Shown here in pieces: positions 893-55,691 of a DNA stretch of 64,000 nucleotides. Made by a program: the position numbers and the translations under genes. The notes under the pieces were generated by a model, which was not told the origin of the DNA, searched no databases, and saw only the letters and a program-made list of their open reading frames with translations. Origin of the DNA: an uncultured virus (IMG/VR IMGVR_UViG_3300025848_000037) (lineage: Duplodnaviria > Heunggongvirae > Uroviricota > Caudoviricetes). Position 1 is the first letter of the stretch. The number at the start of each line of letters is the position of its first letter. The stretch is taken from the IMG/VR virus record IMGVR_UViG_3300025848_000037. One strand, given 5' to 3'.

Positions 893-906
893 TGGAACTT
901 GTTCCA
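893..906. promoter_or_regulatory. Palindrome TGGAACTTGTTCCA copy, operator position for ParB-like gene
   Basis: Lies between the -10 box (930-935) and the RBS of the ParB-like gene; same 14-mer recurs across the window. Confidence 0.75.
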
Positions 907-929
907 CCCGTTTGGCTTGCACCACATAT

Positions 930-958
930 ATTGTACCAAATGCATCTGATGTGTGCAA
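930..958 (-). promoter_or_regulatory. Sigma70-type promoter for ParB-like/helicase operon
   Basis: TTGCAC-N17-TACAAT with TG extended -10 on minus strand. Confidence 0.65.
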
Positions 959-1340
959 GAGTCAAGCTACGCCGGGTGACTGGGGGGCCATCATCTTAGG
1001 CTTCTCAGTCACCGTGCCCGTCTAGGGGTTAGCCCTTAGACCAGCAGCCGACCATCACTGGGCGACCCACCATGGGTGGTTGAGTCATCGGGAAGGGTGC
1101 TTTGGCTGTCACGAGTCACCCCTGCCTGCGCGAGTCGCTCAACTACGCTCGCACGCACCGGTTGGTCTTGCCGGCACGATTGTCTTTTCTTCCGCGCCAC
1201 CGATTTCAAGTGCTTGCTGACGGGCGGAGTCCGGCTGGGTGTGGAGGGTGGGAACTGAACTGCTCGCATGAAGCAGCGTTCTGTGAAAGTTACGGAGACC
1301 AAGTCACGGAGCTAACCCGTTACCAGTCCAGTTCCCGAAA

Positions 1341-1457
1341 AGCAAAAAGCCGTTAAGACAGACCCCGGTGGAAACCCACCCTCTTTTGGAGGACGGCACC
1401 CCAGTCGGGGTCGGAGTCTGACTTAACGGCTTTCGTTGCTTAGGTTTCCACGCCTAG
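1341..1457 (-). ncRNA. Candidate structured regulatory RNA (C4/CI antisense-like architecture)
   Basis: Long stem AAGCCGTTAAG/CTTAACGGCTT with inner hairpins, upstream small hairpin with 9-nt complementarity to an inner segment, directly downstream of a consensus promoter. Confidence 0.45.
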
Positions 1458-1465
1458 CTGGGTGG

Positions 1466-1496
1466 ATTATACCAACACAGCTTCAACGCGTGTCAA
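1466..1496 (-). promoter_or_regulatory. Sigma70-type promoter
   Basis: TTGACA-N19-TATAAT with TG extended -10 on minus strand. Confidence 0.6.
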
Positions 1497-1580
1497 CTAT
1501 TTTTTTCCAACACGGCTGGGGACTCGTCGTGCGTCCTTCGATTAGCGTGGCGACACCGGCCACATCCCCATGCGTCTTGG

Positions 1581-1614
1581 AAAAAGTCCCCCCACCTTTC
1601 GGCGAGGGGGAACT
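1581..1614 (-). terminator. Intrinsic terminator after RuvC-like gene
   Basis: GC-rich stem, GAAA loop, followed by U run on minus strand. Confidence 0.65.
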
Positions 1615-1666
1615 CAACAAGAATCAACCATGATGCGGCAACTGCAATCACCGCGGCGCTACTGTA

Positions 1667-2143
1667 TCAGATCTGCTGGCGGCCGTACTCTGCAAGCAGC
1701 GCAGCCTCGGCCCGCCCGTCATCCTTCACCCGCTTGAACGACCCGGCAAACGCCGGCCACATCCCCATGGCCATGGACCGGCTCGCATCCTTGCCAGAAT
1801 CGAGCTGCAGCGCTTTTTTCCACTTGGCTGGGGTGACAGTACTGATCTTGATATTGTTGCCCGCCAGAGCCCCTTTGACGATGCCAAACGCCTCCCCGAA
1901 AGCGAACATCGAGCTGACCCCCTGGCCCGGCATCGCTGTAACTTGTTCCACCCAAGCGTGCGCCTCGCCGGAGTACCAGCTCAGGTCATAAGCCAGCAGC
2001 TCAGGACTGACCCTGGTCTTTACCGCCTTGCCAACCTGGACCTGGACCACCGGCATGTCCAGCAGCCGCACCAGGCTCCCGTTCATGTTCATGATGGCAA
2101 TGGCTCCATGAGCCCCCGGGTCAACCCCAATAATAAATTTCAT
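1667..2143 (-). CDS. RuvC-like Holliday junction resolvase
   Basis: IIGVDPG...VEQV...GVSSMFAFGEAFG...VTPAKWKK...DDGRAEAALLA; start placed at MKFIIG. Confidence 0.85.
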   Translation of the reverse strand: MKFIIGVDPGAHGAIAIMNMNGSLVRLLDMPVVQVQVGKAVKTRVSPELLAYDLSWYSGEAHAWVEQVTAMPGQGVSSMFAFGEAFGIVKGALAGNNIKISTVTPAKWKKALQLDSGKDASRSMAMGMWPAFAGSFKRVKDDGRAEAALLAEYGRQQI

Positions 2144-2151
2144 AAGAGTCC

Positions 2152-2181
2152 TTGCAACACATGAATTGGTGTGGGTATAAT
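2152..2181 (+). promoter_or_regulatory. Sigma70-type promoter for recombination operon
   Basis: TTGCAA-N18-TATAAT upstream of AAGGAG RBS and GTG 2211. Confidence 0.6.
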
Positions 2182-2210
2182 GTCCCCTCACTTTAACCCA
2201 AGGAGAACCT

Positions 2211-4614: not shown

Positions 4615-4617
4615 GTA

Positions 4618-5785: not shown

Positions 5786-5985
5786 GCGAGCACGACGAAA
5801 ACCTGCGTGATCTGGCCGCCATGTTTGCCATGGCTGGTCTGCTCATGCGCGGAGAGTTGGGGCCAGGCCTGACCGATATGGCCTACGACCATGCCGAGGA
5901 CTTCATGGCCACCAGGGCCAATCGCCCAGAACGTGGGATCGCCGCGATCAAACGTGGCCGCAAGAAGAAAGAAGCTGAAGAATGA
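5782..5985 (+). CDS. Hypothetical protein
   Basis: ATGA overlap; LRDLAAMFAMAGLL typical small phage protein. Confidence 0.65.
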   Translation: MSEHDENLRDLAAMFAMAGLLMRGELGPGLTDMAYDHAEDFMATRANRPERGIAAIKRGRKKKEAEE

Positions 5986-6272
5986 TGTACCGCAACCGTA
6001 AGCTGCTGGACGCGGCCAGAGAGCTGCCCTGCCAGCACTGCGGCGTGTCTGACGGCACGGTTGTGGCTGCTCATTCCAACCAGCTTCGAGACGGAAAGGG
6101 GCGGGGCATCAAGGCTCACGATTACCGCATCGCAAGCCTGTGCTACCGCTGCCATTCCGATCTGGACCAGGGCTCCAACATGTCAAAGCAGGAGCGCATT
6201 GATATGTGGGAGGAAGCCCATCGCAAAACGATAGGCCTCCTCTTCGAGCGCGGCATCATTGTGTTGCCGTAG
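5982..6272 (+). CDS. DUF1364/YbcO-like putative Zn-binding nuclease
   Basis: PCQHC...TVVAAH...GRGIKAHD..IASLCYRCH. Confidence 0.75.
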   Translation: MMYRNRKLLDAARELPCQHCGVSDGTVVAAHSNQLRDGKGRGIKAHDYRIASLCYRCHSDLDQGSNMSKQERIDMWEEAHRKTIGLLFERGIIVLP

Positions 6273-9200
6273 ACATATCCTCGTTGAACCGCGTCATCAT
6301 CCGGTTCTTCTGCTCCTTCAGCCGCTTGATCCGGTCTTTGGTGAAGTCGGTCTCAGGCTTATCCTGCAAGTCCTTGATGGTGCGGTTGAGCTGGCTGATC
6401 TGGTTTTCCAACCTGTTCGCCCGGTTAATCAGCCGCGTCTCAGGGTGATCCTGCTTGTACTCTTGCGGGCTGACCTTGTCCTCACGCATCCGCTTGATGG
6501 TGCCCTCGTGCTCCGCCAGCTTGGTCACGTTCTTGTAGAACTTGTCCGTCACCGCTGAAGGCGTGGTGGTCTCACCGTACAGCTTGCCAAGGATCGGCAC
6601 CTTGTACGGCGGAATCTCATCTTCACTGCCCAAAGAACCCAAGAACCTGGCCGCCCTCGAAACCTCACGGCCCACGCCACCCGTGTACTGAGCAATGAGG
6701 TAATCAATTTGGTCTGCCGTGGGGCTGGCCAAACCGATTCCATACGCACCGCCGCCAGACATGTAGTTAATTGCGTACGACATGCCCTGGCTAAAAGCCG
6801 ACGAGCTTTCCCGGCTGCGCTCATATCCAGGCGTCGGGCTGGTTGCCCTAGCTTCCTTCGAGATCGGGCGACCAAACGCGTCCTTGTTTTCGCCAAAAGC
6901 AGCTATGAATGGATCAATGATTGTCGGCGTAATTGTCTGTACCAAACCGCTCGACCCAAACGGGTTGAAAGAATCAGTGACGATCCCAAACAACTGGCCC
7001 ATCAGCTTGCCAGCGTCCTTGCGACTGGACATTGCAAACTCGGTCATCGTGCGGCCCACGTTGGGGAACACGTTCAGACCCAGGGGCATCGGGATGATCA
7101 GGTAGTTGCCGCTGCCAGTGAATAGATCAGGAATGATCAAGTTCTTGTTCTTCAGGAACTCTGGCGGCTCATCTTCATCAAACCCAGCCATGGCCAGCGC
7201 CAATGCCTGGAACACCCCGATAGCGATACCGCCAGCGATGATGCGCTTGCCGTGCTTGGACAGCTTGTAGCGGCCATCAGGCGTGCGATCCACCAGCAGC
7301 TTAGCCATCCGGGCAGAGCCTTGCACCGACGCGTTGAAGAACGCATACAGAGCGCCAATCCATGTGCCCGATTGACCCTTGCGGTTGAAGTTCACCGTCA
7401 GGTTCTTGGCCAGGCTGGCAGCCCGCTCTTCAGTCAAGCCCTCGTCCAGAGCCGCTTTGAATGCCGACAGGCGAACGGCGTTTTCCATGGCGTCGTTGTA
7501 GTCCGACAGCCAATCAAACACAGCCTTGGCTGCTTTGCGTGCGTTGCCAGCATCAAGATTCTTCAGCTCGCGCTGGATGATCGTTGCCTTCTCTTTGCTA
7601 CGGCTGAACTGCTCGCGGTACCCGGTCTGTCCGCCAGCTTTTTGGAAGCGCTCAAACAGGTCAATCCATTCCTGCATCTCAGGGGTTGTGGACCCCTTTT
7701 CACGGAGGTCACGGTAGATAGCCCGCAGTGCAGATAAAGAACCCCAGAACACTTGCAGTTTGCGCTTGGCAATTGGCGTACCGCTAAGGTTGATAGCGCC
7801 AGCCGTGGTATCGCGCACAAAGTTCCATGCACCAAACACCGGGTTGTACTGGGTGTTGAGCGCCGCATAGGTGCGGGTCAACTCAGCCACTTTCCCCATG
7901 ATCCCGGACAGCTGCTCCGCGTCCATGTTGGTCAATGCTTGGACCATCCGGAGGGCACGCGGGTCACCAGGGTTGAAGAAGACGAACCGGTCTTCCCCGT
8001 TGATGCGCACGGCAAACACGTTGTCCGAGTTGCGCATGTTTGGGTTGACTTCGTACGTAATCTGGCCGGTCTGCTTATCAAAGCGCGGCACCTTCGGCTC
8101 TTGAATAATGCTGTCTGCATCATCAGGAGTGAGCCCCAGGTTGATCAACTCCTGGACGAGCTTCTTCTTGCTCTTGATGGCCGACGGATTGACCGCCATC
8201 CAGAAGTCCGGGTTAGGACTGGCAATCGCCATGCCGTACAGTGCGCGGCCAACCCTGGCTTTCTCCGACCGAACAATGGCCCGCTCACGCTGCAGAGCAA
8301 TGTTGCCAAAGATGTCCACCACGGTTTTGAGAGAGCCGGTGGCAGTCTTTGTAAACCGACCGCGGGTGCTGAAGCCCCGGCCCATCCCGCTGGTGCTTGA
8401 CACAAAGTCCAGCTCATCCGGGTCACGGTTGAGCGGCACATACAGCGGCTGGGTGTCACGCCACTTCTGGATTACCTCCGGCTTCTCCAGCCCGGTATCA
8501 ACCAGCAAGTCCTGCGTGCCTTGGACAATTTTGTCGATGTCCAAAGCCAACGCCTCGAAGGAAGCCTTCTTCTCAGGGTCGAGTTTGGCCATATAGGCCG
8601 CAGCTTCATCATTGAAGATGCCAGAGCCGCCGTCGGGCATCTGCGCGTTGCGCGTGGCAATCAAAGCGTTGCGGTCAGGGGCCGCACGGTTTTGCAGATA
8701 CTCCTCGAACTCATCCAGCGTAACGCCAAGACCCTTCATGTCTTTGAGCAGCGGCTGGATTTCCTGCTTCAGGAAGTCCTGCGTCTGCTTGGCCACGCGC
8801 CCGTGGTACAGCTCCTCCTTCATGTACGTATCGAGGCCATCCTGGATGTCGCCGATCTCGTTTGAGACGGCTTCCTGCATCCGCTTGGTATCGACGTGCT
8901 TGTCCTGGTACTTGTAAATGAAGTTGTCCAGGCGAGACTCGTTGGGGGACGTCCAGGTGGCCAGTGGGGCCGGGCCGCCCTTGTAGTTGCGCCTGGTGTT
9001 GTCAATGTTAGCCAGGGGGATGGACACCATCCCAACGTAATCAGCCAGTACGCGCTTGGTAACGCGCTCCGCCCGAGCGTTCATGATGTCATCGAACGTG
9101 CGATGGATTACGTACTGGTTATCAAACCCGATCAGGGACTTGAGCCCCTCGTACATCTTCTTAATTGCCAGAACAAACCGATCCCAGGCGCTGCCGAGCT

Positions 9201-20472: not shown

Positions 20473-22824
20473 TTATTTTGGCATGAATTTTTGCGGCTTG
20501 ATCTGCTTGCCTTGCTTAGGATTGCCCGTCCTAGCCTTGCGAACCCGGTTCATCATTTCATACAGAACACGCGACCCAGCTTCCGTTGAACCATTCCCCA
20601 AATGTGACACCACATCTGCGGGAATAACAAACTCCCCATCAGCCAGCCGCGCCGGCTGCTTATTAGCAATCGATGCAGGGATGTTGTCAGACATGCCATC
20701 ACCCGGGCCGCGAAGCAATCTGCCGCCGTCCGAGTAGGAGCCAAGCATACCGCCACCGGCCAGAGACATCAAACCACCAGCCGCTGCTTTTACCTTCGTA
20801 AACTTCGGGTTCAAAAACTGCTGGCCATACGCAATCCCGCGCTGGACTGGTTGGACATTCTGCTGGTTCCAGTCCATTTTAAGGACGTCCCTGGCTACAG
20901 CCTGCTGCTGCGGCGTCCCACTTGTCAGCGAGTCAAGTGCCGATACTGCACCAGCAGTCAAAAGCCCAGCTGCCGCCGCATTGATTATGTTCTGACTAAT
21001 GTCCCCTTTGGGCGCGGTGCTGGTCGAGCCAGACGCTGCCATTGTCCCGCCAATCGTTGGTGCCGCAGGTTTCGGTGTCGTTGGCTTTGCCGGCGCAGGC
21101 GTTGTTGCCGGCTGATTATCGGTAGCCGGGGTTGTATAAATAATTTCGTTTTTCTCGTTAATAGTGACGGTGCTGCCGTCATCATTAACTATCGTGTTTG
21201 TGCCATCGCCGTTGGGCATCCACTGGGATGTCAGGCCGCCGTTGTCATAGATTTCCTTCAGCGTTTGCTGATAGGAATTTATATTCTGATCAGCAGGCAC
21301 CCCAAAGTTTTGCACCGGGTACTTTTCTGGATCATATCCAAATCTTTGAGCTACTGGATCTGACTGACCAACATCGCCCGGCACAATTGCCCCTGGCTCA
21401 GGAAATTCAGCCCGCGGCATTTCCGCTACTTCCGGCCTAACTGAAGCCGGCGCTACTGGCTCAACTGGAGCTGGTTCAACATTTTCTGTTGTGTTTTCCG
21501 TAACAGGCAAATCTGTGTTTGGCGAAATGTTAGAAAACATTTCATTGCTAGTTTGCAATTCTTTCAACGCTTTAACTATTTCAGGAGGAAGCCTGGCATA
21601 CAACTCTTCTTCGCTCTCCACTGCTGGAGCAGGCTGCTCCACGATTGATGGCAGCCCAGGTTCTTTCGTTTCCTCTGGAACTTGTTCCACTTTTACAGGC
21701 GCTGGCTCGACTGGCTTTTCGGTTCCAGCAATTGACGGCAACCCTGTTGCTTCGACTTCGGTCTGGGGCTGCACGGGCGCGGTTACCACGGGCTCTGGAG
21801 CAACCGCCGGAAGACCTTTTTTGTCAGACGCTTCCTGCATTGCACGCAATGCATAAAACGGTTCGTTGCCAAATCCATTTGCTTGTGCGTACTGCCGGGT
21901 TGCGTCGTCTGGCCATCCCAGACGTTTTGCTGTTTCATCTTTGTATGCAGCAATATCCCCGTTAAAAACTCGCCTGGTGTAATCGCCTGGCCAGCCTTCT
22001 TTTTGCGCTTCCAAATCAGCGGCTGACGGCTCAATCTGTTGCGGCTCGAATTCTGGAATTTCCGTGTCAGTTGCATCAGCCGTATATGTTGGCGCCTCCG
22101 CAACTTCGAATGTGTTGGGGTCAAAGGTTTGTGAGTCATCGACCTCAGTAGCGTTTACCAGCTGCTGCGGTATGCCTGCATCGGCAACGACGGGCGTTTC
22201 TTTGCTGGCAGTTGGCGTATCGTCTTTCAACGCCGATCTCAACGACGATATGCCTGACGAAACCAGCGCGTTAGTCGCGGCCTTGGCACCATCGCCGCCA
22301 GTAAGTTCTGAGGTGATACCAGCCTTTGCTGCTTGCTGGATAGGTTTGGGCAGCTCCTTAAAAGCATCAATTCCTTCAGCAGCTGCGTTTACTCCAGACG
22401 AAACTGCAGAGGTAAGGAATGCCTGAGCAGGATCCTGCCCTGTTACTTCAGCCACCACGGCTTTTGCTGTAGCTTTACCAGCAGCATCCGCCAGCGCAGT
22501 GCTCATCCCAAGGTCAGCAAACGCAGTAGTGGCAACACTTGCCACCTCAGCGCCAGCAACAGGAATGACCGCTGAAATAAGTGCCTTCTCAACATCCCCG
22601 CCATTAATTGCCGCGTTGACAATTGTGTTGCCAACAACAGTGGCTACGGCTCCACTGCCCAGTCCAAGCGCAGATCCAATTGCTGTTCCAACCCCGGGAG
22701 CAAAAACACTAATAGCTACTGCCGCCAGCAGTTTTGGATCCTCAACAACCTTTTCGACTGTTTGGACAACCGGTTGGATGATTGCATCATCCCACCTTGG
22801 ACCCATCTTTTTTAAGTATCCCAT
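20473..22824 (-). CDS. Internal virion protein
   Basis: Hydrophobic Gly/Ala N-terminus, acidic Pro-rich middle, C-terminal GPGDGMSDNIPA...ARLADGEFVIPADVV. Confidence 0.6.
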   Translation of the reverse strand: MGYLKKMGPRWDDAIIQPVVQTVEKVVEDPKLLAAVAISVFAPGVGTAIGSALGLGSGAVATVVGNTIVNAAINGGDVEKALISAVIPVAGAEVASVATTAFADLGMSTALADAAGKATAKAVVAEVTGQDPAQAFLTSAVSSGVNAAAEGIDAFKELPKPIQQAAKAGITSELTGGDGAKAATNALVSSGISSLRSALKDDTPTASKETPVVADAGIPQQLVNATEVDDSQTFDPNTFEVAEAPTYTADATDTEIPEFEPQQIEPSAADLEAQKEGWPGDYTRRVFNGDIAAYKDETAKRLGWPDDATRQYAQANGFGNEPFYALRAMQEASDKKGLPAVAPEPVVTAPVQPQTEVEATGLPSIAGTEKPVEPAPVKVEQVPEETKEPGLPSIVEQPAPAVESEEELYARLPPEIVKALKELQTSNEMFSNISPNTDLPVTENTTENVEPAPVEPVAPASVRPEVAEMPRAEFPEPGAIVPGDVGQSDPVAQRFGYDPEKYPVQNFGVPADQNINSYQQTLKEIYDNGGLTSQWMPNGDGTNTIVNDDGSTVTINEKNEIIYTTPATDNQPATTPAPAKPTTPKPAAPTIGGTMAASGSTSTAPKGDISQNIINAAAAGLLTAGAVSALDSLTSGTPQQQAVARDVLKMDWNQQNVQPVQRGIAYGQQFLNPKFTKVKAAAGGLMSLAGGGMLGSYSDGGRLLRGPGDGMSDNIPASIANKQPARLADGEFVIPADVVSHLGNGSTEAGSRVLYEMMNRVRKARTGNPKQGKQIKPQKFMPK
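21676..21689. repeat. Palindrome TGGAACTTGTTCCA copy
   Basis: Exact match inside CDS. Confidence 0.8.
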
Positions 22825-23224: not shown

Positions 23225-23238
23225 TGGAACTTGTTCCA
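23225..23238. repeat. Palindrome TGGAACTTGTTCCA copy (intergenic)
   Basis: Exact match in the 31-bp gap directly after the stop codon at 23239. Confidence 0.8.
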
Positions 23239-24615: not shown

Positions 24616-26726
24616 GTGTTACCTCTGCGGCCATCCGGGCGGATGTCGATTCGAGGTGAGCCCATCTGCCAGGTGCATCCCAGCTGGTCAGACTCCATCT
24701 GAATAATCATCTGGCGGCCTCGAACCCGAACGTAAACCTGGCCGGTGAACTGCTCGATGGGAACCGTGGCAGTCCTCACCACAGTAGCATTGTCGCTTCC
24801 GGCAACCGACGTCGGATTGTTATACCCTGAGCCCGAGTTCTGCATCGGGATCAATGTCAGCGTAGCCTGCGGGCTGGTGGCCGTCGATCCGCGGAACGTA
24901 ACGTCAGGCAGCATCCGCCACACAAAGCCAAACCGATCCCCATCATCGATGTCAAATTCCGATGAGCTAATCAGGGCATAGATCGATGCTGGGATTGCCG
25001 TGGCAGCATCATCAACACCATACTCATGGTTCACGATGTTGTTGATATACGTAGCAGCTATAGGGTAATCCCTTAGCCCAGAGTCCAGCCAAGCCGACCT
25101 GGCCATGTTCCCGTAGTACCAAACCCCTTCGCCGTTGTTTTCGAAGTAGTTGTAAACCACGTAGCGGTCAACCGTGTTTGAGTTGGCGCTGCAGTAGAAG
25201 AACCAAACCTCGTTGAATCCTTCATTGGTGCTGGCAAAAATCTGGTCAGCCTGCTGAAGGTTGATGTCGCCGTAGATGAATTGGCGAAGGTCACAACGCA
25301 GGGTCTGGATGCGGCCATCGTATTTGTAGAACTTGTCCACACCCATCCAGTACACGGCGCCAGACGCAACAGCTGCGGCGTTAGGGCTAGCAATCGAGAT
25401 GTTGTCCCCCAGCAGCTGGGTTTGCCACACCGCGGGAGCGCCTACATACTGAAACGAATACAGCGTCGAATCCGTCCACACCACAATTTCCTGGCGGGTT
25501 TGCAGGCATGTTACAACCGTAGATCCATGCGAAAGCAAAACACTGCCGGCCTGGTTGGTAGCCGCAGGCGTCCAATCAGTCAGGGATTCCTGATCAGACC
25601 AGCGAACCAGCATCTTTGACTGAACGGTACTTCCATAATCGTTAGTGCCAAATGCAAAAATAAACCGGTTTGTATCCGATACAAAAATGAATTCCTGAAT
25701 GATAGGAACATCACTTCCTCCGCTGAGGCTGGTCAACGGAATCCCTCTGGCAGAGATTGAATGAACCCCAGATTGCGTGCCACTAGTATTAATTGCCGTT
25801 CCGCCAGAAGTTGCAGCAACGTTGAATGTCACGCCAGCCGTGTTTACAACATAGTACGTCGTGCCCACCAAAAGGCCCGTGGGCAATGCACCCGTGGTTT
25901 GGAAAATAATTGGCGTGTTGTTGGCCAGAGCAATTGTTCCCGTAACAACGCACGGCGATGCAATCGTCATCGTGACGGTTGATGCCTGGTATCCAATCGT
26001 GGAACTCCAGTAATAGATCTGGCCGCCGCGGGGTGCGTATAGCAAGTCAGAGCCAAAGTTTGTCTGGCTCCAAATGCGGATAGCTTCGGCGGAACTTGTT
26101 CCAATACCCCATGCTCCAGAGCCCCAGAAGCCAGCGCCCCAGCCCGTGATTGGCGCAACCAACTCTGGGCCAGTATTGATTTGATAGACGGCATACACAG
26201 TACCGCCACCAGTTGTGCTGGAAGACGCTGTTCCAGAAACCAAAATGGTGTAGGTTGTTGTTGATGTTTTGGTGATCTGGTATTCGCCGTTAACGGTTAC
26301 CCCGCCAACAGCTGTGCCACCAGTAAATGTGACAAAGTCATTGTTCAGGTATCCACCGCCAGCATCAGTCACCGTCACCGTTGTGTATCCACCAGAGTTG
26401 GTGGCGGTGTTGGTTGTGAATGGATTTAACAATGTCACTACCGGCATTGTTGGGGTGATGTCGTAATACGCCCCGCCATTTTCAATGTAAAACTTGAGGT
26501 TCGTTCCAAGCCCCAGCAGGTTGGCGCCACCAAGCGTTACCCAGTTCCACAGTGACCGGCAAATGCCAAGGAACGTATTGGCCGAGATCCGCGCCCAGCC
26601 GCCAATCTTTTCAGGCGTACCCTGGCGAAAACGCACTTTGTCACTCTCGTACCAACCGTTTTCGTTGGTGTATCGAGTGTTCTCCCGATTGACCCCGGCT
26701 TTGAGTGTGAGCTTCTTTAGCGGCAT
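24612..26726 (-). CDS. Tail hub / DNA stabilisation protein (P22 gp10-like)
   Basis: KVRFRQGTPEKIGGW, VRWSDQES..DW, beta-propeller-like repeats, podovirus gene order. Confidence 0.65.
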   Translation of the reverse strand: MPLKKLTLKAGVNRENTRYTNENGWYESDKVRFRQGTPEKIGGWARISANTFLGICRSLWNWVTLGGANLLGLGTNLKFYIENGGAYYDITPTMPVVTLLNPFTTNTATNSGGYTTVTVTDAGGGYLNNDFVTFTGGTAVGGVTVNGEYQITKTSTTTYTILVSGTASSSTTGGGTVYAVYQINTGPELVAPITGWGAGFWGSGAWGIGTSSAEAIRIWSQTNFGSDLLYAPRGGQIYYWSSTIGYQASTVTMTIASPCVVTGTIALANNTPIIFQTTGALPTGLLVGTTYYVVNTAGVTFNVAATSGGTAINTSGTQSGVHSISARGIPLTSLSGGSDVPIIQEFIFVSDTNRFIFAFGTNDYGSTVQSKMLVRWSDQESLTDWTPAATNQAGSVLLSHGSTVVTCLQTRQEIVVWTDSTLYSFQYVGAPAVWQTQLLGDNISIASPNAAAVASGAVYWMGVDKFYKYDGRIQTLRCDLRQFIYGDINLQQADQIFASTNEGFNEVWFFYCSANSNTVDRYVVYNYFENNGEGVWYYGNMARSAWLDSGLRDYPIAATYINNIVNHEYGVDDAATAIPASIYALISSSEFDIDDGDRFGFVWRMLPDVTFRGSTATSPQATLTLIPMQNSGSGYNNPTSVAGSDNATVVRTATVPIEQFTGQVYVRVRGRQMIIQMESDQLGCTWQMGSPRIDIRPDGRRGNT

Positions 26727-37600: not shown

Positions 37601-38924
37601 GAAAACTAAGTGTGCCTGTTCCGGTAAAAGAAACTCCAGAACCGTTGGTCCAATTGCCATAAACAGCATTGGCATTAACTGCCACAGTCATAACTGTTGT
37701 TCTTGCCGACATATCAACCGTAGGCAGCCAACCAATAGCAGTATCCAAAGTCAGCGACAATCCCGCACTGCTGTTATTAACTACAGCGGTGTCTTGCGGC
37801 AATGGAAAATTATTGGTGTTTGGAGTCCCGCCCGAACTGGATGCCCATGCGTTGCCCGACCAACTGCCGCTTGATAAATTTAGATACACCGTCTTGGGCG
37901 CATCGAACGTGATGTTCCTACACTCGCCACGGTTGCCGATGCGCGTGCCGCTGATGGGGGCCGATGTGCCCCTGACATAGAGCCCCCGGAAGTCTGCGTC
38001 TGTCAGGCTGGGAGCGGAGTTGACTACGAGGTCAACAGAGATGCCGTAGGTTTCTGACGAAAAAAATACGCGCCGGTTGCCCGCCGTGCCAGTGGTGGAC
38101 AGGGTGCCGTTGATGGTTTGCTGAGAGTCAAAGGTGATTGTTTTTACCCCTGCGGCAGATGGTGCAGGGATAGTAATGTTATTAAATGTATTTGCGCCCC
38201 TTATTGACCACGTAGTTGAACTTGTGGTCGTAAAAGACAGGTTGTAATATGTAAATCCACCTCCAATAAAAAATGAAGATATTTGATTTGAGGTTATTAA
38301 AGAAGTTCCGGCATTGATGGTTAAATTAGTCCCAGATATGGTCCATATGCCGCTACTAACTCCTACACCAAATGTGATTGTGGATGCGTTAAAATTTATG
38401 GCTCTAACAGAGGAACCAGTGGAACTAAATGTCCCGCATGATATGTTGTAGTTTCCGGATGAGGATGTGTCAAAAGTGCCCGCAGCAACGGTTATTCCAA
38501 AGTTGCCGGTAGCTAATGTTAAAGCGCTCCCGAGTGTCCACCCGCCTCCGACACCGTTAAAGGTTATTGAAGTGCCAATGACGGTTCCGTTAGTTGTTAT
38601 CGTTCTACCAGTAGTGGTTGAACTAAACGTAATTCCACCCGTAGAACTCCACACCGTCCCGGCCAACAAGGACATGGAGCCACGAATGTTTAGCGTGGGA
38701 GATGTGCCCGTGGCAAAGGTAACAGTGCCTGCGGAGACGGTGATGTCCAGACACGCCAAAGCGCCCGTCATCGTGACGGTGTAGGTGCCTGCCTGATCAA
38801 AGAAGACGTTGTCCGCTACGGTAGGGACAGATGCGCCACTAGCTCCGCCAGAGGAAGCGGACCAGTTTGTTGTGCTGGTGGTGTTCCACGTCCCCGTGCC
38901 ACCTACCCAGTAACGGTTAGCCAT
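31638..38924 (-). CDS. 2428-aa repetitive fibre/adhesin-like virion protein
   Basis: Five ~340-aa Thr/Gly-rich modules starting YW/YL..W; ~20-aa E(S/T)ATGT(D/E) repeats; 11-aa Trp repeats at C-terminus. Confidence 0.75.
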   Translation of the reverse strand: MANRYWVGGTGTWNTTSTTNWSASSGGASGASVPTVADNVFFDQAGTYTVTMTGALACLDITVSAGTVTFATGTSPTLNIRGSMSLLAGTVWSSTGGITFSSTTTGRTITTNGTVIGTSITFNGVGGGWTLGSALTLATGNFGITVAAGTFDTSSSGNYNISCGTFSSTGSSVRAINFNASTITFGVGVSSGIWTISGTNLTINAGTSLITSNQISSFFIGGGFTYYNLSFTTTSSTTWSIRGANTFNNITIPAPSAAGVKTITFDSQQTINGTLSTTGTAGNRRVFFSSETYGISVDLVVNSAPSLTDADFRGLYVRGTSAPISGTRIGNRGECRNITFDAPKTVYLNLSSGSWSGNAWASSSGGTPNTNNFPLPQDTAVVNNSSAGLSLTLDTAIGWLPTVDMSARTTVMTVAVNANAVYGNWTNGSGVSFTGTGTLSFQGGGTQTITSAGRTFSCPITINTFGGTVQLADALSINAQNITINNGTFTTANYAVTAAAFSSNNTNVRTVNLGSSTVTLSTNGTSINFTGTNFTFNAGTSQILLTGAPTMVGGGLTFYNVSVTFTGASGTVPYISDQNTFNNLSISPRATDAIRFFYFFNNQTINGTLTCAGATPTRRIFLYSNTLGSQRTLTVNSLSATDCDFQDINLAGAAAGSSPTRAGDCGNNTGITFPAAKTVYWNLAGAQNWSATGWATSSGGSPAVNNFPLAQDTAVFDNTGSVTGTITIDQNWNIGTFDASNRTSAMTLSTSTNNPVVYGDWKFGTGVTSSSTTGTLVFSKNGTQTITSNGVQFGCPVTALHPSVTVQLADAISLNSARQLAVGSGATFDAVTYNVTAGSYSVALTGGTTKMGSGTWTLSGTGIVWNLSNGAPILIAGTSTIVLSDTSTTARTFASGALYYNKLTIGGATGTSTLTLTGASIFGELASTKTVAHTITMPSNTTTTVGKWSITGTAGNVVTLAPSTAATTYTLSIAGPANTGIDYLSISYCAVSTTSPGEFYVGVNSTNTAGNTRVIFTATPAPRTLYWVGGTGNWSDTARWSTSSGGGSGAAIPTSLDAVIFNSASNATAYTATVDAGVTIARCASFTMAGPAAGNVTFAGTVGIAFHGNVSFAATGITRTYTGAMTLAGNSTYTFTTNGVGFASATIFTVNGPFAAWTLGSALSQVQFVMVCGTFSTNNFALGVVGFGDSGSNIYTISLGSSTVTLGGGNLSFISNNRIFNANTSTILMNGSNQFVLGSNTYWNLTWVGGTPFQSCGFSGSNVFNNLTINNPFNPGIKPYSLGGNQTITTLALNAGTASAYRAFLASDTLGTARTLTVGTLTAGAADFDFRDITIAGAAAPISGTRLGDAKGNSGITFPAAKTVYWAVNSANWGATGNGSWTDVSGNPAVATQFPLPQDTAYIPFATPTSGSTITVNANYNIGTVEMSNRNGSALVTLATGTTTPTIYGNWINGTGTTLSGTQTLTFAGRGSQQLTSAGRTFTQLFAISTPGGSVTLQDALSINSNVTGQITLNSGTFDAATYNVTFVSTASYNAVVSSTTSTRTLAFGSGTWTVGGSPVSITSTTNLTVTGTATVNATGAAAKTFAGGGISYSGITLNQGGAGALTITGNNTFKTITNTYSATGATSIALGSTTTTLTDPWTATGAAGRVLTVSGSQANLVYTGAGVAASTVDYLSISSVRAYPLVDEWYAGANSTNGGTLGWYFVAAGGTVYAATITETGTGSDSILARAIFNSIISETGTGTDSISAALGGITYLGTIEELATGSDAVLARAIFRASLAESGTGTDTISARSAFGTAILESATIADTNLARLIARATLAETATITDANVGRISFPTVISETASGSDTDAASLTVNPAISETATGTDAVSARAIFLAAVAESGTITDLISAIKGYFVAILESATGTDTFSAKYTTLPSVSETAAITDANVGFISFPTTISETATGTDTDSAQYITRPSIAESATGTETVSTLYSTNPSVAESATGTETVSPRYIANPSIVESASITDAVAARYIALPSIFESASGSDIIVGGLRFIGVIAESATGTETVAARYITNPFIAETATGSDTDAARLSAAGIISETATGTEAITARATFKSDIAEYSSVVEIVRAFFTAAAQVSELATGTDQVSALRALAAAVAETATVTDSLSARAVFIGLLQEAATVQDAVNAPGSTYNILMQELAQAQDAITAQAIFPASLAETATGTETNSAAFIPLATITETATITDAASALQAFAASIFETSAAADSVLVAPSIFNAIAVASATALDNLNAPGSIYNVTIPESATLSDSVIGAFLWNLIDDSQPESWQNVLDAQSVTWSAINASQTAGWGEVDSAQATSWGNADSAQAPGWQDAQTSQTGTWNAVDDSQSVNWQNVVNEQPDGWNAVNASQTAGWGNTGNAQSGTWNNIDDDEDPDWVNIPTLN

Positions 38925-39104
38925 TTACACCCCCGGTTCAGGGGGCGATTCTACGGGGTTAACGATGGCGAGCCAGTTGTCGAAGCGCTGCTGTTTCAGC
39001 GCCTGAATCTCAGCGTCACTCAGCCCGTGATCCTTGGGCAAGTGAAGGGCGTCCCGAAAGACGCCGTACTGGGAGTCAAACTCGAAGTCGATCTTGACAG
39101 TCAT
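38925..39104 (-). CDS. Hypothetical protein (59 aa, not in ORF track)
   Basis: MTVKIDFEFDSQYGVFRDAL...; ATGA overlap upstream, abuts fibre start. Confidence 0.7.
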   Translation of the reverse strand: MTVKIDFEFDSQYGVFRDALHLPKDHGLSDAEIQALKQQRFDNWLAIVNPVESPPEPGV

Positions 39105-39658
39105 ACTAGTACATCCCTAAACGTTCGACCGTGGATGATGTTAAGCACGGTCTTCTTGCTAACCCCCAGTTTAGCCGCGAGGACGGTAGATGTCAGCATC
39201 GGGTAGTTCTCTTTCACGTACGCGGCATCTTCTGCGGTTAGCTTGGAGTTTGGACGCTCCGCAATTGGCGTGGTAACAGCCTGTTCCTCAGACATCCCGG
39301 ACTTGATCCTGTACAGAATGTTACTGGGGTTGCAGCCTAGCTCCTTTGCCCACTGCGCCAACGTCTGGGTCTTGCCGTTTGCCGTGATCCAGCGGTTATT
39401 GCGCTTGTTCCCGGCCTGCTCGCTGCGGGTGGCCCACTTGCAGTTCTCTGGAGAGTATGGACCGTGGTTGTTGATCCTCTCCAACGTCCCGCCTTCCGGG
39501 CGGGGGCCCATGTCTGCCAAGAATTGCCTGTACCCGGCAGAACCATGCCACCGTTGATCTACATAAATTCCACGTGCGCCATAGTTTGCATACGACTTCA
39601 CGTTTTTGTTATAGCAACGGTTATGCACGGCCCGCCACACATTTAAGACCAAGTCCAT
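39101..39658 (-). CDS. HNH-type homing endonuclease-like protein
   Basis: RC...SYANYGARGI, FLADMGPRP, LERINNHGPYSPENCKWA; GGAGG RBS. Confidence 0.85.
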   Translation of the reverse strand: MDLVLNVWRAVHNRCYNKNVKSYANYGARGIYVDQRWHGSAGYRQFLADMGPRPEGGTLERINNHGPYSPENCKWATRSEQAGNKRNNRWITANGKTQTLAQWAKELGCNPSNILYRIKSGMSEEQAVTTPIAERPNSKLTAEDAAYVKENYPMLTSTVLAAKLGVSKKTVLNIIHGRTFRDVLV

Positions 39659-43156: not shown

Positions 43157-43351
43157 TTAGGCCTCGCTGGGTTGCTCAGCAGCTTCTTCTGGAACTTGTT
43201 CCACAGGCTCAGCAATCACCACTGGAACTTGTTCCACCGGGATGGTCAGCTCATCAATCAAATCAAGAATGGCGGGGTTGACTTGCCCCAAGCCAGCCAA
43301 TTGCTGGGCAGCAGCCATTTGGGCGCACATCAGTACGGTATCGAGGTTCAT
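43157..43351 (-). CDS. Small acidic protein containing two palindrome copies
   Basis: AAGGA RBS; PVEQVP twice. Confidence 0.55.
   Translation of the reverse strand: MNLDTVLMCAQMAAAQQLAGLGQVNPAILDLIDELTIPVEQVPVVIAEPVEQVPEEAAEQPSEA
43190..43236. repeat. Two palindrome copies (43190-43203, 43223-43236)
   Basis: Exact matches with starts 33 bp apart. Confidence 0.8.
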
Positions 43352-48683: not shown

Positions 48684-48685
48684 TT

Positions 48686-49615: not shown

Positions 49616-49626
49616 GTGAACCTCCT

Positions 49627-50037
49627 TCACTTACGCCGGATGCCGCGAGGATCGTCCACAGTACCGTCAACCGTATCATCATTGATCATACGGAACTCAC
49701 GGCCATGGATAACCAGGCGCTGACCAGCATTGGGTCGAACAAGAACAAAATCACCCTCCTTGCACCACGGGCCACTGGGGAACCGCTTGGGATCCTTGTA
49801 GCAGTCCGGTCCCAGTGCAACCACGAACAAAACCGTGGCCAGGGTTTCTTCAATCATGATCGTTTCGTCGGCCTTCAACAGGCCTTGCTCAAACTCCTTA
49901 TCCACCTCGGGCAGGGCACACAAAATTTTGTAGCCAGCCGGTTTGGGGAGTTGTTTCCCTTTTTCTTCGGGAGTTGTGGAACTTGTTCCAATAATTACCG
50001 GATTGTCTGGATTAGTCGCCAGTAGGATCTCACTCAT
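49627..50037 (-). CDS. groES: GroES-like co-chaperonin
   Basis: PKPAGYKIL...VVALGPD...KEGDFVL...GQRL...FRMINDD. Confidence 0.8.
   Translation of the reverse strand: MSEILLATNPDNPVIIGTSSTTPEEKGKQLPKPAGYKILCALPEVDKEFEQGLLKADETIMIEETLATVLFVVALGPDCYKDPKRFPSGPWCKEGDFVLVRPNAGQRLVIHGREFRMINDDTVDGTVDDPRGIRRK
49977..49990. repeat. Palindrome TGGAACTTGTTCCA copy
   Basis: Exact match; read as GTSS in GroES N-terminal extension. Confidence 0.8.
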
Positions 50038-50236
50038 CTTGGGTTTCAAGCCTTCGCTGTAGGTCTGTGATGTAGAGACGTGCAGTGAGCAGACCTTTAA
50101 CCTCTCCGCACATCTTTTTGTACTCCGCAAAATCCTTGGCGTTATCGTCCGCCAATGCTTCTTGGAGTTGTTGAACCTTGCTGTCGATTTGCGACCTCAA
50201 ATGTTCGAACGCTTTGTCAATGAATTGATCATTCAC
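50030..50236 (-). CDS. Hypothetical protein
   Basis: DFAEYKKMCGEVKGL; overlaps both neighbours. Confidence 0.7.
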   Translation of the reverse strand: MNDQFIDKAFEHLRSQIDSKVQQLQEALADDNAKDFAEYKKMCGEVKGLLTARLYITDLQRRLETQDE

Positions 50237-52692: not shown

Positions 52693-52700
52693 GCTGGCCC

Positions 52701-54197
52701 TTAATAATAGGAAACCCGACGTTTGAATGATACTGGCTCATCAGGCTCGTCAGTTTGAAGGCGGATAAACCCACCCTTTCGGAAACGAATCAGCGCTTGC
52801 GTCGTCGAGTCCACAAGGTCATCGTGATCTGAATACGGGAATGCCGCCATCTCTTCAATTAACTCGTCCGCCCACCTTGTTTCCGGCGCCCATACCTTGC
52901 CACTGGCAAACAAATCGGCCACAGAGTTAATACGGACCATCTTATCATTGCCCCTGCTGGGTGTAAATTCACTTACAGGGATACCCATCGCCCTCAGCTC
53001 ATAGATAAGTGGCGCCCCGGAAGCCTTCGCTTCCACGATAAACGCGTCCGGCTCCCACTCCTTATAGTGGTTAAACGCCTTCTCCTTCAACTCCGGGAAC
53101 TCCATTCGGCGCTTGAACGCATCGAGCAAAATAATGTGGGCGTCGTTTTCGTTCTCGTTCATGTAGAACACCCCCCACGTCGTACACGCCGAATAGTCCG
53201 CCCTCTCACTCTTCGTAAACGCCGTGTCCCAGCTCTGGATCACAAACTGACACTGGGGCGGCCTCTCCTGCTTCCACGCCTTCCACCACTCCCTCTTAAT
53301 AATCGCGCCCTCTTCGGACGTCGGCTCCTGCTGGTACTGGGCGTTCCACTTGCTCACCGGCAGTTCAAGCTTCAGAGCTTCGAGCTCCTCCAGGCTCCAG
53401 AACTCCGGCCAAAGTGGCTTTCCACTCGGCAATATCGCAGGGAAGTTAATCACCTCCCAGTGCTCCCCATCCTTATCGATCATCGACTGCAACACCCGGC
53501 CCGTCAGGTCTTTCTTCGACCACCGGGTCATCACGATCACAATCGACCCACCCGGCTGCAGACGCTGCCGCGGGCCAGACGTGTACCACTCATACACCTG
53601 GTCAAACACCTCCGGGTTACTTTGCGCCAACTTGGCTTCCTGCTCGGAATGGGGGTCGTCAATGATGAGTAGATCCGCGCCCTTACCCGTCACCGTACCG
53701 CCCACACCAATAGCGAAATACTCCCCGTTCCCGTTCGTCGCCCAGCGACCCGCCGCCTTGGAGTCAGCCCTCAAGCTCACATTCGGGAAGATCTCCCCGT
53801 ACGGCTGGCTGTCCACCAAGTTCCGCACCTTCCGGCCAAAGCCCACCGCCAGTTCACTCGTGTTCGAGCACTGGATCACCTTCTTATTCGGGTACTTCCC
53901 CAAAAACCAGCTCGGCAGCATGAACGACGCAAACTCACTCTTCGTGTGCCGCGGCGGCATATTAATAATCAACCTCTTCAGCTTCCCCTGGGCAATCTCC
54001 TCAAACTTCGCTGCCATCACTTTATGGTGCCGCCCGTCAATAAACCCAGGCCACATCGCACGGACAAACTTCCCAAACGACCCCTGCGCCTCCTCCCGGC
54101 GTTTGGCCATCCTCAACTCATGAAGATCCTCAAACACCTGCTCCTGCACATTCAACGGCAACTTCTCTATCGCCCGGGCAATTTCATCTACGTTCAC
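52701..54197 (-). CDS. terL: Terminase large subunit
   Basis: INMPPRHTKS, LLIIDDP, VMTRW, QSWDTA, HDDLVDS. Confidence 0.95.
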   Translation of the reverse strand: MNVDEIARAIEKLPLNVQEQVFEDLHELRMAKRREEAQGSFGKFVRAMWPGFIDGRHHKVMAAKFEEIAQGKLKRLIINMPPRHTKSEFASFMLPSWFLGKYPNKKVIQCSNTSELAVGFGRKVRNLVDSQPYGEIFPNVSLRADSKAAGRWATNGNGEYFAIGVGGTVTGKGADLLIIDDPHSEQEAKLAQSNPEVFDQVYEWYTSGPRQRLQPGGSIVIVMTRWSKKDLTGRVLQSMIDKDGEHWEVINFPAILPSGKPLWPEFWSLEELEALKLELPVSKWNAQYQQEPTSEEGAIIKREWWKAWKQERPPQCQFVIQSWDTAFTKSERADYSACTTWGVFYMNENENDAHIILLDAFKRRMEFPELKEKAFNHYKEWEPDAFIVEAKASGAPLIYELRAMGIPVSEFTPSRGNDKMVRINSVADLFASGKVWAPETRWADELIEEMAAFPYSDHDDLVDSTTQALIRFRKGGFIRLQTDEPDEPVSFKRRVSYY

Positions 54198-54460
54198 TCA
54201 ATCCTCCGAAAATTTATATACACAGGCCGTATCGACCTCGCGCTCCCAGGCAACCTCTTACACACCCCCAAATCACACAGCTTCCTCATCACCCTATTCA
54301 CATTCCCCCGCCCCCTATCCCCCGTCAACCTCATGATGTCATCCACCGACGGCCCATACCCAAACTTCTTCCACCACTCATCAATACACAAAAACACCAC
54401 CTTCTGCTTCGGCGTCATAAGCCTCTCCATCCCACTCTCAACATCCCTTACTCGCTCCAT
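54194..54460 (-). CDS. LexA DNA-binding-domain-like winged HTH protein (start uncertain, 54418-54460)
   Basis: MTPKQKVVF..I...GYGPSVDDI...L..LG...ARSI; no peptidase domain. Confidence 0.7.
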   Translation of the reverse strand: MERVRDVESGMERLMTPKQKVVFLCIDEWWKKFGYGPSVDDIMRLTGDRGRGNVNRVMRKLCDLGVCKRLPGSARSIRPVYINFRRIE

Positions 54461-54717
54461 TCCCCATCCTCCCACGACCGATCCCACTCCCACACCACCA
54501 CCGGAGTCCTCGGCCCCACATACGCCCCCTCCACATTGAAATCAATAAACTCCAACGCCTCCTCATCACTCATCCCATCCCTCTCCATCAACACCTTCAC
54601 TATCCCCTCCCCCGAATACACCAACCTCTCCACCCTCCCATCATCCATCCACACACTAGCCGTCCCCAATATCGCATCGTCATACCCATCAAACCGAATC
54701 AGCCCCTCCATCTCCAT
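54448..54717 (-). CDS. Hypothetical protein
   Basis: AAGGAG RBS; DGYDDAILG...EALEFIDFNVEGAYVGP.TP. Confidence 0.75.
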   Translation of the reverse strand: MEMEGLIRFDGYDDAILGTASVWMDDGRVERLVYSGEGIVKVLMERDGMSDEEALEFIDFNVEGAYVGPRTPVVVWEWDRSWEDGEWSE

Positions 54718-54802
54718 CTCCTTTATCTGTACTTATCTTTGTAATTGATAAGTATGTTGCACAAATTTATTCCGCCAATTACTAACCCTAATTTTCTATA
54801 AA

Positions 54803-54816
54803 TGGAACAAGTTCCA
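54803..54816. repeat. Palindrome copy in inverted orientation (TGGAACAAGTTCCA)
   Basis: Exact reverse complement, in AT-rich intergenic gap. Confidence 0.8.
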
Positions 54817-54843
54817 CTCTCAGGATTGGATCAATTTTTATTT

Positions 54844-55587
54844 TTATACCCCCCCATCGGTTTTTTCTAGCGATTCTTTGAGTGGAATACTATGCGAAGG
54901 TGCGCCCCCCGTGGCCGGGCCGGAATGGGCGGGTGGGGGGGCCGTGGGGTCGGCTGGCTGGCCATCGTCGTGGGATGTGCCTGCATCTGTGCGTGCTTGG
55001 GCCAGCTCGGTGAGCAGGTCTAGCCCGGCGTCTGCCTCGACTACCTGTGCGTCCGTGACATCCTTGAGTGTCTCGAGGAGACGCGCCCGGATCTCCCCGC
55101 TGCGCTGGATGGTCGTGATCTCCTTGCGTTCGACGAAAGCCCCGACCTCGAACAGGTTGCCCAACAGCTTCAGGCAGGCCACGCGTTGGGCAGGCGGGAA
55201 CTCGGGATCGAGGGAGTGCTGGACGAGTTGCTGGACGAGCAGGGACTTGAGCTGAGCAGGGGTTCGATGTTTCTCTGCCTCGATTGCCAGCTTGTAGGCC
55301 TCGACCTCTTGCTGGATCCTTGCGTCGGCTGCGAGCTTGTACGGCTGACAGACGATTGTGGACGGAGCTGGTGTTCCCTCTCTACTGTCCCTGTATGCCT
55401 GAGCCTTCGTCTTCCCTAGTGCAAGCTGCCGGGCGAATTCCCTCTGTTTCGTCGTGAGCTGAGCCTTCTTCCCCGGGCCGGACGACAGTAGGTGTTCTAC
55501 CGGGAACTGCGTGAGCCCCTCTGCGATCTGCTGCCGGGTCAGCTTCTGTGGTGTCTTCACCTTGCGTGCTGGAGTGCCTGTGTCCAT
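54844..55587 (-). CDS. Terminase small subunit (putative)
   Basis: LTTKQREFARQLALGKTKAQAYR HTH; RVACLKLLG; upstream of TerL. Confidence 0.65.
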   Translation of the reverse strand: MDTGTPARKVKTPQKLTRQQIAEGLTQFPVEHLLSSGPGKKAQLTTKQREFARQLALGKTKAQAYRDSREGTPAPSTIVCQPYKLAADARIQQEVEAYKLAIEAEKHRTPAQLKSLLVQQLVQHSLDPEFPPAQRVACLKLLGNLFEVGAFVERKEITTIQRSGEIRARLLETLKDVTDAQVVEADAGLDLLTELAQARTDAGTSHDDGQPADPTAPPPAHSGPATGGAPSHSIPLKESLEKTDGGV

Positions 55588-55673
55588 CGTGTCCTACTAG
55601 GTACGGAGTGAGTATCGGGCCAGATGATACCGCGGCCTTCACCCAGGTCAACCGCGGCGTGCCATCCTGACCT

Positions 55674-55691
55674 AGTGGAACTTGTTCCACT
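55674..55691. promoter_or_regulatory. Extended palindrome AGTGGAACTTGTTCCACT between divergent late and early units
   Basis: 18-bp inverted repeat 18 bp upstream of the early -35 box. Confidence 0.75.

Follow-up and report, generated by a model that had tools for sequence, protein, structure and literature searches.

The stretch of DNA considered here (the window; 64,000 nt from the uncultured Caudoviricetes virus record IMGVR_UViG_3300025848_000037 in IMG/VR) carries genes for a large terminase subunit (TerL), portal, Mu-gpT-like capsid protein, SU10-type adaptor, ejection proteins, endolysin and spanin, together with a recombination set of Erf, a PD-(D/E)XK exonuclease and RuvC, a Toprim primase and a ParB-like protein. 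Scattered through it lie nine exact copies of a 14-bp palindrome, TGGAACTTGTTCCA, and two further copies with one mismatch (Table 1). This report deals with the palindrome and with the ParB-like protein, which comparison with related phages suggests is the best candidate for its binder.

Palindrome copies and selection on the DNA

An earlier note on this DNA had listed the nine exact and two one-mismatch copies, and a motif scan returned every one of them. The note had also judged them to be far too many for chance, and shuffled sequences agree: none of 100 dinucleotide-preserving shuffles held any exact copy. With up to two mismatches allowed, the scan gave 20 rows, in which each exact copy is listed on both strands (the reverse strand differs only at the TT/AA centre); these rows amount to 11 distinct places, against a shuffle mean of 0.48 and a largest shuffle value of 3. 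The one-mismatch copies begin TGTAAC (at 1937) and CGGAAC (at 26090).

Four copies are intergenic (893, 23225, 54803 and 55676) and seven lie in coding sequences (CDSs). As the note had observed, the copies within genes encode VEQV or GTSS in linker-like stretches, which are rich in E, P, Q and A: five encode VEQV followed by P or T (1937, 16273, 21676, 43190 and 43223) and two encode GTSS (26090 and 49977). Exact copies account for five of those in CDSs, compared with a mean of 0.049 over 1000 synonymous within-gene codon shuffles, the control that the note had proposed; the highest count in any shuffle was 1, and none of the 1000 reached five. Every VEQV peptide in the set of open reading frames (ORFs), five of five, is spelled GTGGAACAAGTT. 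Because of this excess over shuffled codons and the uniform spelling of VEQV, we conclude that selection acts on the palindrome as DNA, with the VEQV peptide apparently a by-product.

The TT/AA centre is fixed in all 11 copies, and 10 of the 11 share one orientation, in agreement with the earlier counts. A functional meaning of that orientation is not borne out. Seven of the ten co-oriented copies lie inside genes on one strand, where the reversed palindrome would encode VELVP or GTCS rather than VEQVP or GTSS and so put Leu or Cys into hydrophilic linkers; the bias is thus a matter of coding constraint, and the split among the four intergenic copies is 3:1.

Table 1. Palindrome copies, promoter-like matches and the parB gene in the window
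Feature	Coordinates	Strand	Context
ParB-like gene (parB)	65..880	-	likely ATG at 874; residue numbers follow the 271-aa ORF
Exact palindrome	893..906	+	intergenic; 18 nt before the likely parB ATG (874)
Sigma-70-like promoter match TGCACA-16-TACAAT	930..957	-	TG before the -10; in front of parB
One-mismatch hybrid TGTAACTTGTTCCA	1937..1950		in RuvC-like gene, encodes VEQVT; kept in relatives G001, G002 and G012
Exact palindrome	16273..16286	+	in gene for 3808-aa polyvalent protein, VEQVP, aa 466, linker-like stretch
Exact palindrome	21676..21689	+	in 783-aa virion-module gene, VEQVP, aa 379
Exact palindrome	23225..23238	+	intergenic; directly after TAA stop of 458-aa gene, 17 nt before next ATG
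One-mismatch copy CGGAACTTGTTCCA	26090..26103		in 704-aa gene, encodes GTSS
Exact palindrome	43190..43203	+	in 64-aa ORF 43157-43351 (-), VEQVP; first of a pair 33 bp apart
Exact palindrome	43223..43236	+	in 64-aa ORF 43157-43351 (-), VEQVP; second of the pair
Exact palindrome	49977..49990	+	in N-terminal part of GroES-like gene 49627-50130, GTSS
Exact palindrome, sole opposite orientation	54803..54816	-	intergenic; between 247-aa TerS-like gene and 89-aa / winged-helix / TerL late operon
Sigma-70-like promoter match TTGACC-16-TATCAT	55624..55651	-	faces 247-aa gene; palindrome at 55676 lies 24 bp upstream of its -35
Exact palindrome	55676..55689	+	between two divergent sigma-70-like promoter matches
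Sigma-70-like promoter match TTGACG-16-TACAAT	55710..55737	+	rightward early genes; palindrome at 55676 lies 20 bp upstream of its -35

Other palindromes at the same places in relatives

Three close relatives (G001, G002 and G012; ParB-like proteins 96-100% identical) retain the exact palindrome. G012 has diverged flanks: its copy before parB is shifted by 8 nt relative to the gene start, and the copy corresponding to that at 55676 forms an island of identity amid diverged DNA. Two relatives with ParB-like proteins 70-74% identical (G003 and G004) have no TGGAAC copy and carry TGTAAC-NN-GTTACA three and two times, respectively, which keeps the 6-2-6 build and symmetrically replaces G by T in the two arms; the site at 55676 reads GTGTAACTTGTTACAC in G004. 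A hybrid, TGGAACAAGTTACA, lies about 50 nt before parB in contig L181, whose ParB-like protein is 84% identical. It was added, along with L191, by a metagenome scan for more ParB lineages, which returned mostly contigs of 1.4-4.7 kb.

Farther lineages each have a palindrome of their own. They include TGTCAC-NN-GTGACA, ATAAC-TA-GTTAT, (ACA)TTAACA-N0-2-TGTTAA(TGT), GTGGTAAC-GTTACCAC (which occurs together with TGGAAAC-GTTTCCA), TGGTAAC-GTTACCA, TGGCAAC-(C)-GTTGCCA, ATTAACA-N-TGTTAAT, CGTTAAA-TTTAACG types, CTATCTTTAAAC-GTTTAAAGATAG and, in G005 and G006, CCCAGC-AC-GCTGGG. Between relatives the flanks diverge and a 16-bp core is either kept or symmetrically changed. The centre is confined to A/T steps in the window (TT/AA) and in the TGTAAC lineages (TA, TT, AA).

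These palindromes recur at corresponding places in the genome. Directly after the 247-aa gene and before the operon of the 89-aa, winged-helix and TerL genes, the lineage palindrome is present at 28 of the 39 loci with at least 120 nt of sequence there, as one copy or sometimes two; the other 11 have no classable palindrome, and classes E and F are uncertain. Palindromes also recur near RuvC, within parB or ahead of it, and in the early region. The palindrome lies inside parB in G003, L012, L013, G017 and G016. Complete or large relatives have two to six copies (four in the complete 61-kb G017 and five in the 65-kb G018), so the window lineage, with 11, is an expanded case, and its extra copies are all in late genes.

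At the late junction an 11-nt flank, TAGAAAATTAG (minus-strand reading; window 54780-54802), follows the palindrome at 54803 by 4-5 nt and is kept in G003, G004 and G012. In G003 another palindrome, upstream of RuvC, has the same flank beside it. G003:C1 (L096/L097) also has two to three copies of a longer palindrome, CGACAACATCATGATGTTGTCG, which forms a family of its own and bears no relation to the TGTAAC sites.

The earlier note had seen in the arms the two half-sites of the chromosomal parS consensus in everted order. Relatives have TGTAAC, TGTCAC, TTAACA or TGGCAAC arms at homologous sites, and the idea fails because the resemblance is peculiar to one lineage.

Symmetric changes of this kind would also keep base pairing, and 10 of the 11 window copies read alike on the strand that codes for most genes, as would suit a single-strand element, that is, an RNA or single-stranded DNA hairpin for processing, attenuation, termination or priming. 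Several observations make such an element highly unlikely. Predicted hairpins at the copies in CDSs are weak (-3.5 kcal/mol, z -0.07 to -1.2) and no better than shuffles, 26 to 85 of 200 of which fold as well, and the TGTAAC variants would be even weaker. The copies are not followed by a T-run, and a look for terminator-like sites near them found none. Within a genome the copies agree in sequence and not just in their ability to pair, and the orientation bias is explained by codons.

Which protein reads the site

Three core proteins with a helix-turn-helix (HTH) occur in the phage family: the ParB-like protein, the 247-aa protein (p247) and a 99-aa LexA-like winged-HTH protein (wHTH99). Presence or absence of parB was rejected as a test of binding: all three are present in 14 of 14 relatives compared, which makes it uninformative. 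The comparison that discriminates is between HTH sequences and sites. Across site classes A, A2, A3, B, B2 and F, the p247 motif LTTKQREFAR..A.GKTKAQAYRDS hardly changes. The recognition region of wHTH99 is identical in the TGGAAC lineage (A) and in L048 (A3, TGTCAC), and a second version of wHTH99 is common to C, F, L067 (A3) and G005, which have TTAACA, TGTCAC, CCCAGC or no classed site. Because their recognition helices stay the same across differing palindromes, p247 and wHTH99 are unlikely readers, and the suggestion in the earlier note that the LexA-like protein might be the binder loses its footing. The HTH of the ParB-like protein, in contrast, differs between almost all site classes, the exception being Ser135, found in L133 (TGTAAC) and in the C lineage (TTAACA).

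A blind column test looked for alignment columns with one residue in all sources with TGG-arm sites and never elsewhere. In the ParB-like protein a single column of 271 separates the sources in this way, with His135 in the six TGG-site sources and A, N, S or V in the 11 others. There were no separating columns in p247, wHTH99, primase, portal or Erf, one of 498 in TerL, and two of 302 in the exonuclease, where only four sources could be set against six. In the AlphaFold model, the second HTH helix (135-150), which is the predicted recognition helix, begins with His135. On a tree of the ParB-like protein (27 rows), His135 with TGG sites falls in two separate, well-supported clades: the window lineage, nested in a clade whose other members (Ala or Ser135) have TGTAAC, and a distant clade of G016, L153, L154, L155 and L157. 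The co-variation of the motif with the ParB HTH across relatives, which the earlier note had proposed to examine, is thus seen in one column. Because of this covariation, the ParB/Noc/KorB-like fold described below and the sites before or inside parB, the ParB-like protein is the best candidate binder of the palindrome, as the note had supposed.

We think it improbable that some other dimeric DNA-binding protein of phage or host, for example a small fast-evolving regulator, reads the palindrome and that the ParB-like protein is a bystander. The window does have many small ORFs without a family match, and upstream of the primase gene it encodes an 86-aa Zn-ribbon protein (60273-60533, -) with a weak HTH match (Pfam E ~0.003). 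However, the 86-aa gene lies in a ~4-kb block that is confined to the window lineage; relatives with the site system lack it. Among the core HTH proteins none other covaries with the site, and the sole separating column of the ParB-like protein coincides with the exact start of its recognition helix.

The position of some copies recalls packaging signals, which would be pac-like sites read by a small terminase (TerS), either the 247-aa TerS-like protein or wHTH99. The two copies in inverted orientation at 54803 and 55676 flank the 247-aa gene, much as pacL and pacR would, and in relatives too a palindrome recurs between this gene and the wHTH-TerL genes. The 247-aa family has a TerS-like N-terminal motif and a weak profile match to 3zqp, a small terminase (E 0.053), and UniRef gives one of its homologues the name 'Terminase small subunit'. 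Yet p247 and wHTH99 keep the same HTH while palindromes differ, so that the TerS recognition element does not covary, and a packaging signal would hardly be expected at 11 dispersed sites, some of them inside parB and RuvC; we regard this as a very improbable explanation. The 247-aa protein itself (54844-55587, -) is probably the small terminase, separated from TerL by the 89-aa gene and the 99-aa LexA-like wHTH gene.

Fold of the ParB-like protein

The ParB-like protein is predicted to begin with a ParB/sulfiredoxin (Srx) N-domain (residues 1-93), to continue with two HTH helices (124-131 and 135-150) and a Pro-rich linker, and to end in a coiled coil (176-270). Its N-domain matches PHROG phrog_1033 (3.5e-20, residues 7-142), and profile comparison with the Protein Data Bank gave ParB 7o0n (5e-5), Spo0J 1vz0 (1.2e-3) and sulfiredoxin 6ky4 (8.8e-5). 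Pfam ParB_N scored 17.2 bits (E 0.0055), under the 26.3 cut-off, and HTH_23 matched weakly at residues 103-144. An AlphaFold (AF2) model, with a predicted local distance difference test (pLDDT) score of 84.3, has two long helices after the Pro-rich linker. Its best Foldseek matches are Bacillus subtilis ParB-CDP 6sdk (9e-8), Noc 7ng0/7nfu, Caulobacter crescentus ParB 6t1f, Myxococcus xanthus ParB, PadC and KorB 8qa8/8qa9. The alignments span ~143-156 columns and cover the N-domain and HTH (7nfu_A, root-mean-square deviation 3.8 over 149 columns). The model thus points to an N-terminal ParB/Srx fold directly followed by a central HTH, with an overall likeness to ParB, Noc and KorB.

Prediction with two copies supports a homodimer. 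The interface score ipSAE was 0.56, compared with 0.00 for the best control; this mark is reached by 20 of 30 solved homodimers and 1 of 23 monomers. The runs agree on at least 77% of contacts, with pLDDT of at least 67. The predicted interface is an in-register parallel coiled coil (residues 187-269) and not the canonical C-domain of ParB. Such a dimer would fit a palindromic site.

Canonical ParB proteins have a Box II of the form GERR (GERRxRA). In the phage protein Box II is DGFHRYHA, in which G59, F60, H61 and R62 are invariant in 37 homologues, and GFHR aligns to GCHRYEAH of sulfiredoxin. The GFHR Box II, taken with the sulfiredoxin likeness, therefore does not imply a cytidine triphosphate (CTP) clamp, and the CTP-dependent loading entertained in the earlier note does not follow from the protein. 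In passages of a recent survey, the nucleotide specificity of ParB folds is described as not predictable from sequence (PMC12704722).

The earlier note had seen no ParA in the window. A second IMG/VR record (G001), 99.97-100% identical to the window, bridges both its ends, which indicates a circularly permuted genome of about 66,068 bp. The window lacks 2,068 bp of it (G001:C1:13667-15734), and these hold a gene for a 492-aa RadD-like superfamily 2 (SF2) helicase and small ORFs, with no further palindrome copy. No ParA-like family was matched among 46 ORFs with Pfam, 83 with PHROGs and 33 further ORFs, this gap included, and no integrase or partition gene was recognised in the same scan. The ParA-binding motif LG-R/K-GL, as given in passages of the survey (PMC12704722), is also absent from the ParB-like protein, which begins directly with the ParB fold.

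A model for the palindrome array

In the reading that we favour, and for which we see about an even chance, the palindromes would be docking sites on double-stranded DNA for the phage's own ParB-fold protein, which acts without a ParA, in the manner of KorB at its operators (OB), and the promoter-proximal copies would be operators. The ParB-like dimer, held together by its C-terminal coiled coil, would place the recognition helix of each subunit, from His135, on one TGGAAC arm.

The layout of the sites suggests where such a protein might act. Of the 11 copies, three lie beside promoter-like sites, one lies between virion genes and seven are in CDSs. A site between a promoter and a gene start is the classic arrangement for autoregulation, and the copy at 893 lies ~17-31 nt downstream of the start predicted for the promoter-like site of parB; here the protein could regulate the string of parB, helicase and primase genes from its own promoter. 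At 55676 the palindrome may be an operator between divergent early promoters, one for the rightward early genes and one for the leftward 247-aa gene. The copy at 54803 marks the entry to a long minus-strand string of late genes and could be an operator for the terminase and structural operon, although an operator role at this late junction is a guess.

Passages of a study of the IncP-1 plasmid RK2 describe KorB as a CTPase clamp of the ParB family, able to reach promoters as far as 1.5 kb from its OB sites (PMC11790492). Because KorB acts from such distal sites, we read the copies placed in tolerant linker codons of late genes as putative extra loading sites, which would let the protein act on DNA nearby in the way that remote OB sites do for KorB on RK2. 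The binding itself, the geometry of the dimer on DNA, any nucleotide-driven clamping or sliding, and the regulatory outcome and its sign are what we infer.

A number of points weigh against this model. The covariation of His135 with TGG goes back to about two independent evolutionary events, and the site classes were assigned by hand from palindromes at one conserved junction. G005 (Lys135) and G006 (Gly135) share CCCAGCACGCTGGG, if that is their equivalent site. Ser135 is found in both the C lineage and L133 despite their different sites, so other residues must also matter. L191 has His135 and no TGG palindrome in its 16 kb, a stretch that does not include the late junction. The column test took proteins with enough orthologues and left out small, fast-evolving ones. 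Box II is GFHR rather than GERR, and the profile of the protein matches sulfiredoxin nearly as well as ParB. Finally, no sigma-70-like promoter was found at the late junction (54803), which bears on the operator role there.

The same ParB-like binder might have another job, marking phage DNA for the replication and recombination genes rather than controlling transcription: it could recruit the RadD-like SF2 helicase and primase, the palindromes could be origin-like or restart sites, or they could serve genome organisation or condensation. In every relative examined, the parB, helicase and primase genes are adjacent and co-directional, and the helicase gene starts 36 nt after the parB stop. Seven of the 11 window copies are inside genes and far from promoters. 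Origins can sit inside initiator genes, as in lambda O, and the sites inside parB in some lineages recall this arrangement. We nevertheless consider this role unlikely: across lineages, position is best conserved at the intergenic junctions where operons start, and a ParB-helicase fusion in the C lineage that would have supported it proved not to be real, a TAA stop separating the two ORFs.

A broader extension of the operator and docking-site model is speculative and, in our view, rather doubtful. ParA-less ParB-fold HTH proteins with palindrome arrays might form a widespread, fast co-evolving control layer in phages without signs of lysogeny. The 'address' of each lineage would be set by single recognition-helix substitutions (His135 for TGG) and written even into coding linkers. 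Nucleotide-driven clamp loading at these sites would then time or silence a late transcription unit of ~49 kb, or hand the DNA to the helicase and primase genes.

Phages and other mobile elements commonly carry orphan ParB-fold proteins, whose DNA targets and roles are largely unknown according to passages of the survey (PMC12704722). The present phage family offers a predicted target site, a candidate one-residue recognition rule and natural specificity variants at fixed genome positions. If the model is true, plasmid-style control of the KorB/OB kind would also operate in phages without partition genes, and the lineages would provide a set of orthogonal protein-site pairs. In the open-access literature searched, no published account turned up of a ParA-less phage ParB with a dispersed array of sites.

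Comparison with known systems

The closest parallel is KorB/OB of RK2. Both systems combine an N-domain of the ParB fold with an HTH after it, Foldseek matches of the phage protein include KorB chains 8qa8/8qa9, and in both one short palindrome is repeated round the replicon, with copies at promoters and at remote places. In the phage these places include promoter-like sites, remote positions and one just before parB, and relatives have palindromes at homologous positions. The two differ in that neither a ParA/IncC protein nor a KorA-like partner was found among the phage ORFs scanned, and in that Box II of the phage protein is GFHR, not GERR. Its C-terminus is a predicted long parallel coiled coil in place of the KorB dimerisation domain. 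The replicon is a phage of ~66 kb, and many of its sites are in coding sequence.

ParB-parS and Noc with its binding sites (NBS) supply the best structural matches (6sdk, 7ng0/7nfu and 6t1f), and share with the phage a palindromic site, for which an HTH dimer is the proposed reader in the phage, and sites that are often in or near parB. Unlike ParB-parS, the phage system has no recognised ParA and no ParA-binding motif. Its arms stand in the opposite order to the parS consensus (as quoted in the earlier note), and they change freely at homologous sites (TGTAAC, TGTCAC, TTAACA, TGGCAAC and others).

Passages of the survey report orphan proteins with the ParB-CTPase fold as common on mobile elements, binding CTP, ATP or GTP and mostly of unknown function (PMC12704722). 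The phage protein is likewise an orphan ParB fold on a mobile element; whereas those passages give no DNA targets for phage HTH-bearing orphans, here both a site and a residue are predicted. Parts of another study describe phage ParB homologues that activate thymine dioxygenases, work with a 5mYOX enzyme and have no obvious DNA-binding domain (PMC13229309). These too are phage ParB homologues with a role outside segregation, as is proposed here, but the window protein has an HTH and no dioxygenase was recognised among the window ORFs scanned.

Genome and further observations

TerL is 55-57% identical to that of the Pelagibacter phages HTVC027P and HTVC023P and of some uncultured phages. An 8.5-kb query found no near DNA match among named phages, and tblastn with the ParB-like protein matched only three uncultured records.

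The 3808-aa polyvalent protein (6256-17682, -), in the virion/ejection module, has an Sbno-like helicase (AAA_34, Helicase_C_4) and LPD38, and its first ~1400 residues are without a family match. It is 47-65% identical in relatives, with the exception of G016, which has a 24% fragment match. An N4-like phage with hairpin promoters was rejected as an interpretation of the genome, since this large protein is the polyvalent Sbno-like helicase protein and not a virion RNA polymerase. A 2428-aa ORF (31638-38924, -) has no Pfam or PHROG match and shows weak (31-37%), partial similarity in three relatives. The 64-aa ORF at 43157-43351 (-), with the peptide pattern PVEQVP...PVEQVP, is matched only in G001 among the records compared.

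A block of small ORFs of ~4 kb (60079-63946, -) lies between the helicase and primase genes in the window lineage only; in most relatives the helicase gene directly abuts the primase gene. L179, a 29-kb metagenome contig, is a mosaic variant that is identical to the window through parB and the recombination genes and whose small-ORF block diverges past the region matching window 62253. Upstream of primase, G008 and G009 have an ORF of 411-418 aa that resembles a C5 cytosine DNA methyltransferase by eye (motifs only) and is absent from the window.

Two genes encode HNH endonucleases. That at 39101-39658 (-) is unmatched in the relatives covering its region, and that at 5982-6272 (+) is a conserved core gene, 65-85% identical in relatives. 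The window sequence is present in 24 sequencing runs, all available as contigs, and in four of them (X9, X10, X12 and X16) these contigs showed no molecule ends. The runs are labelled as freshwater or aquatic metagenomes.

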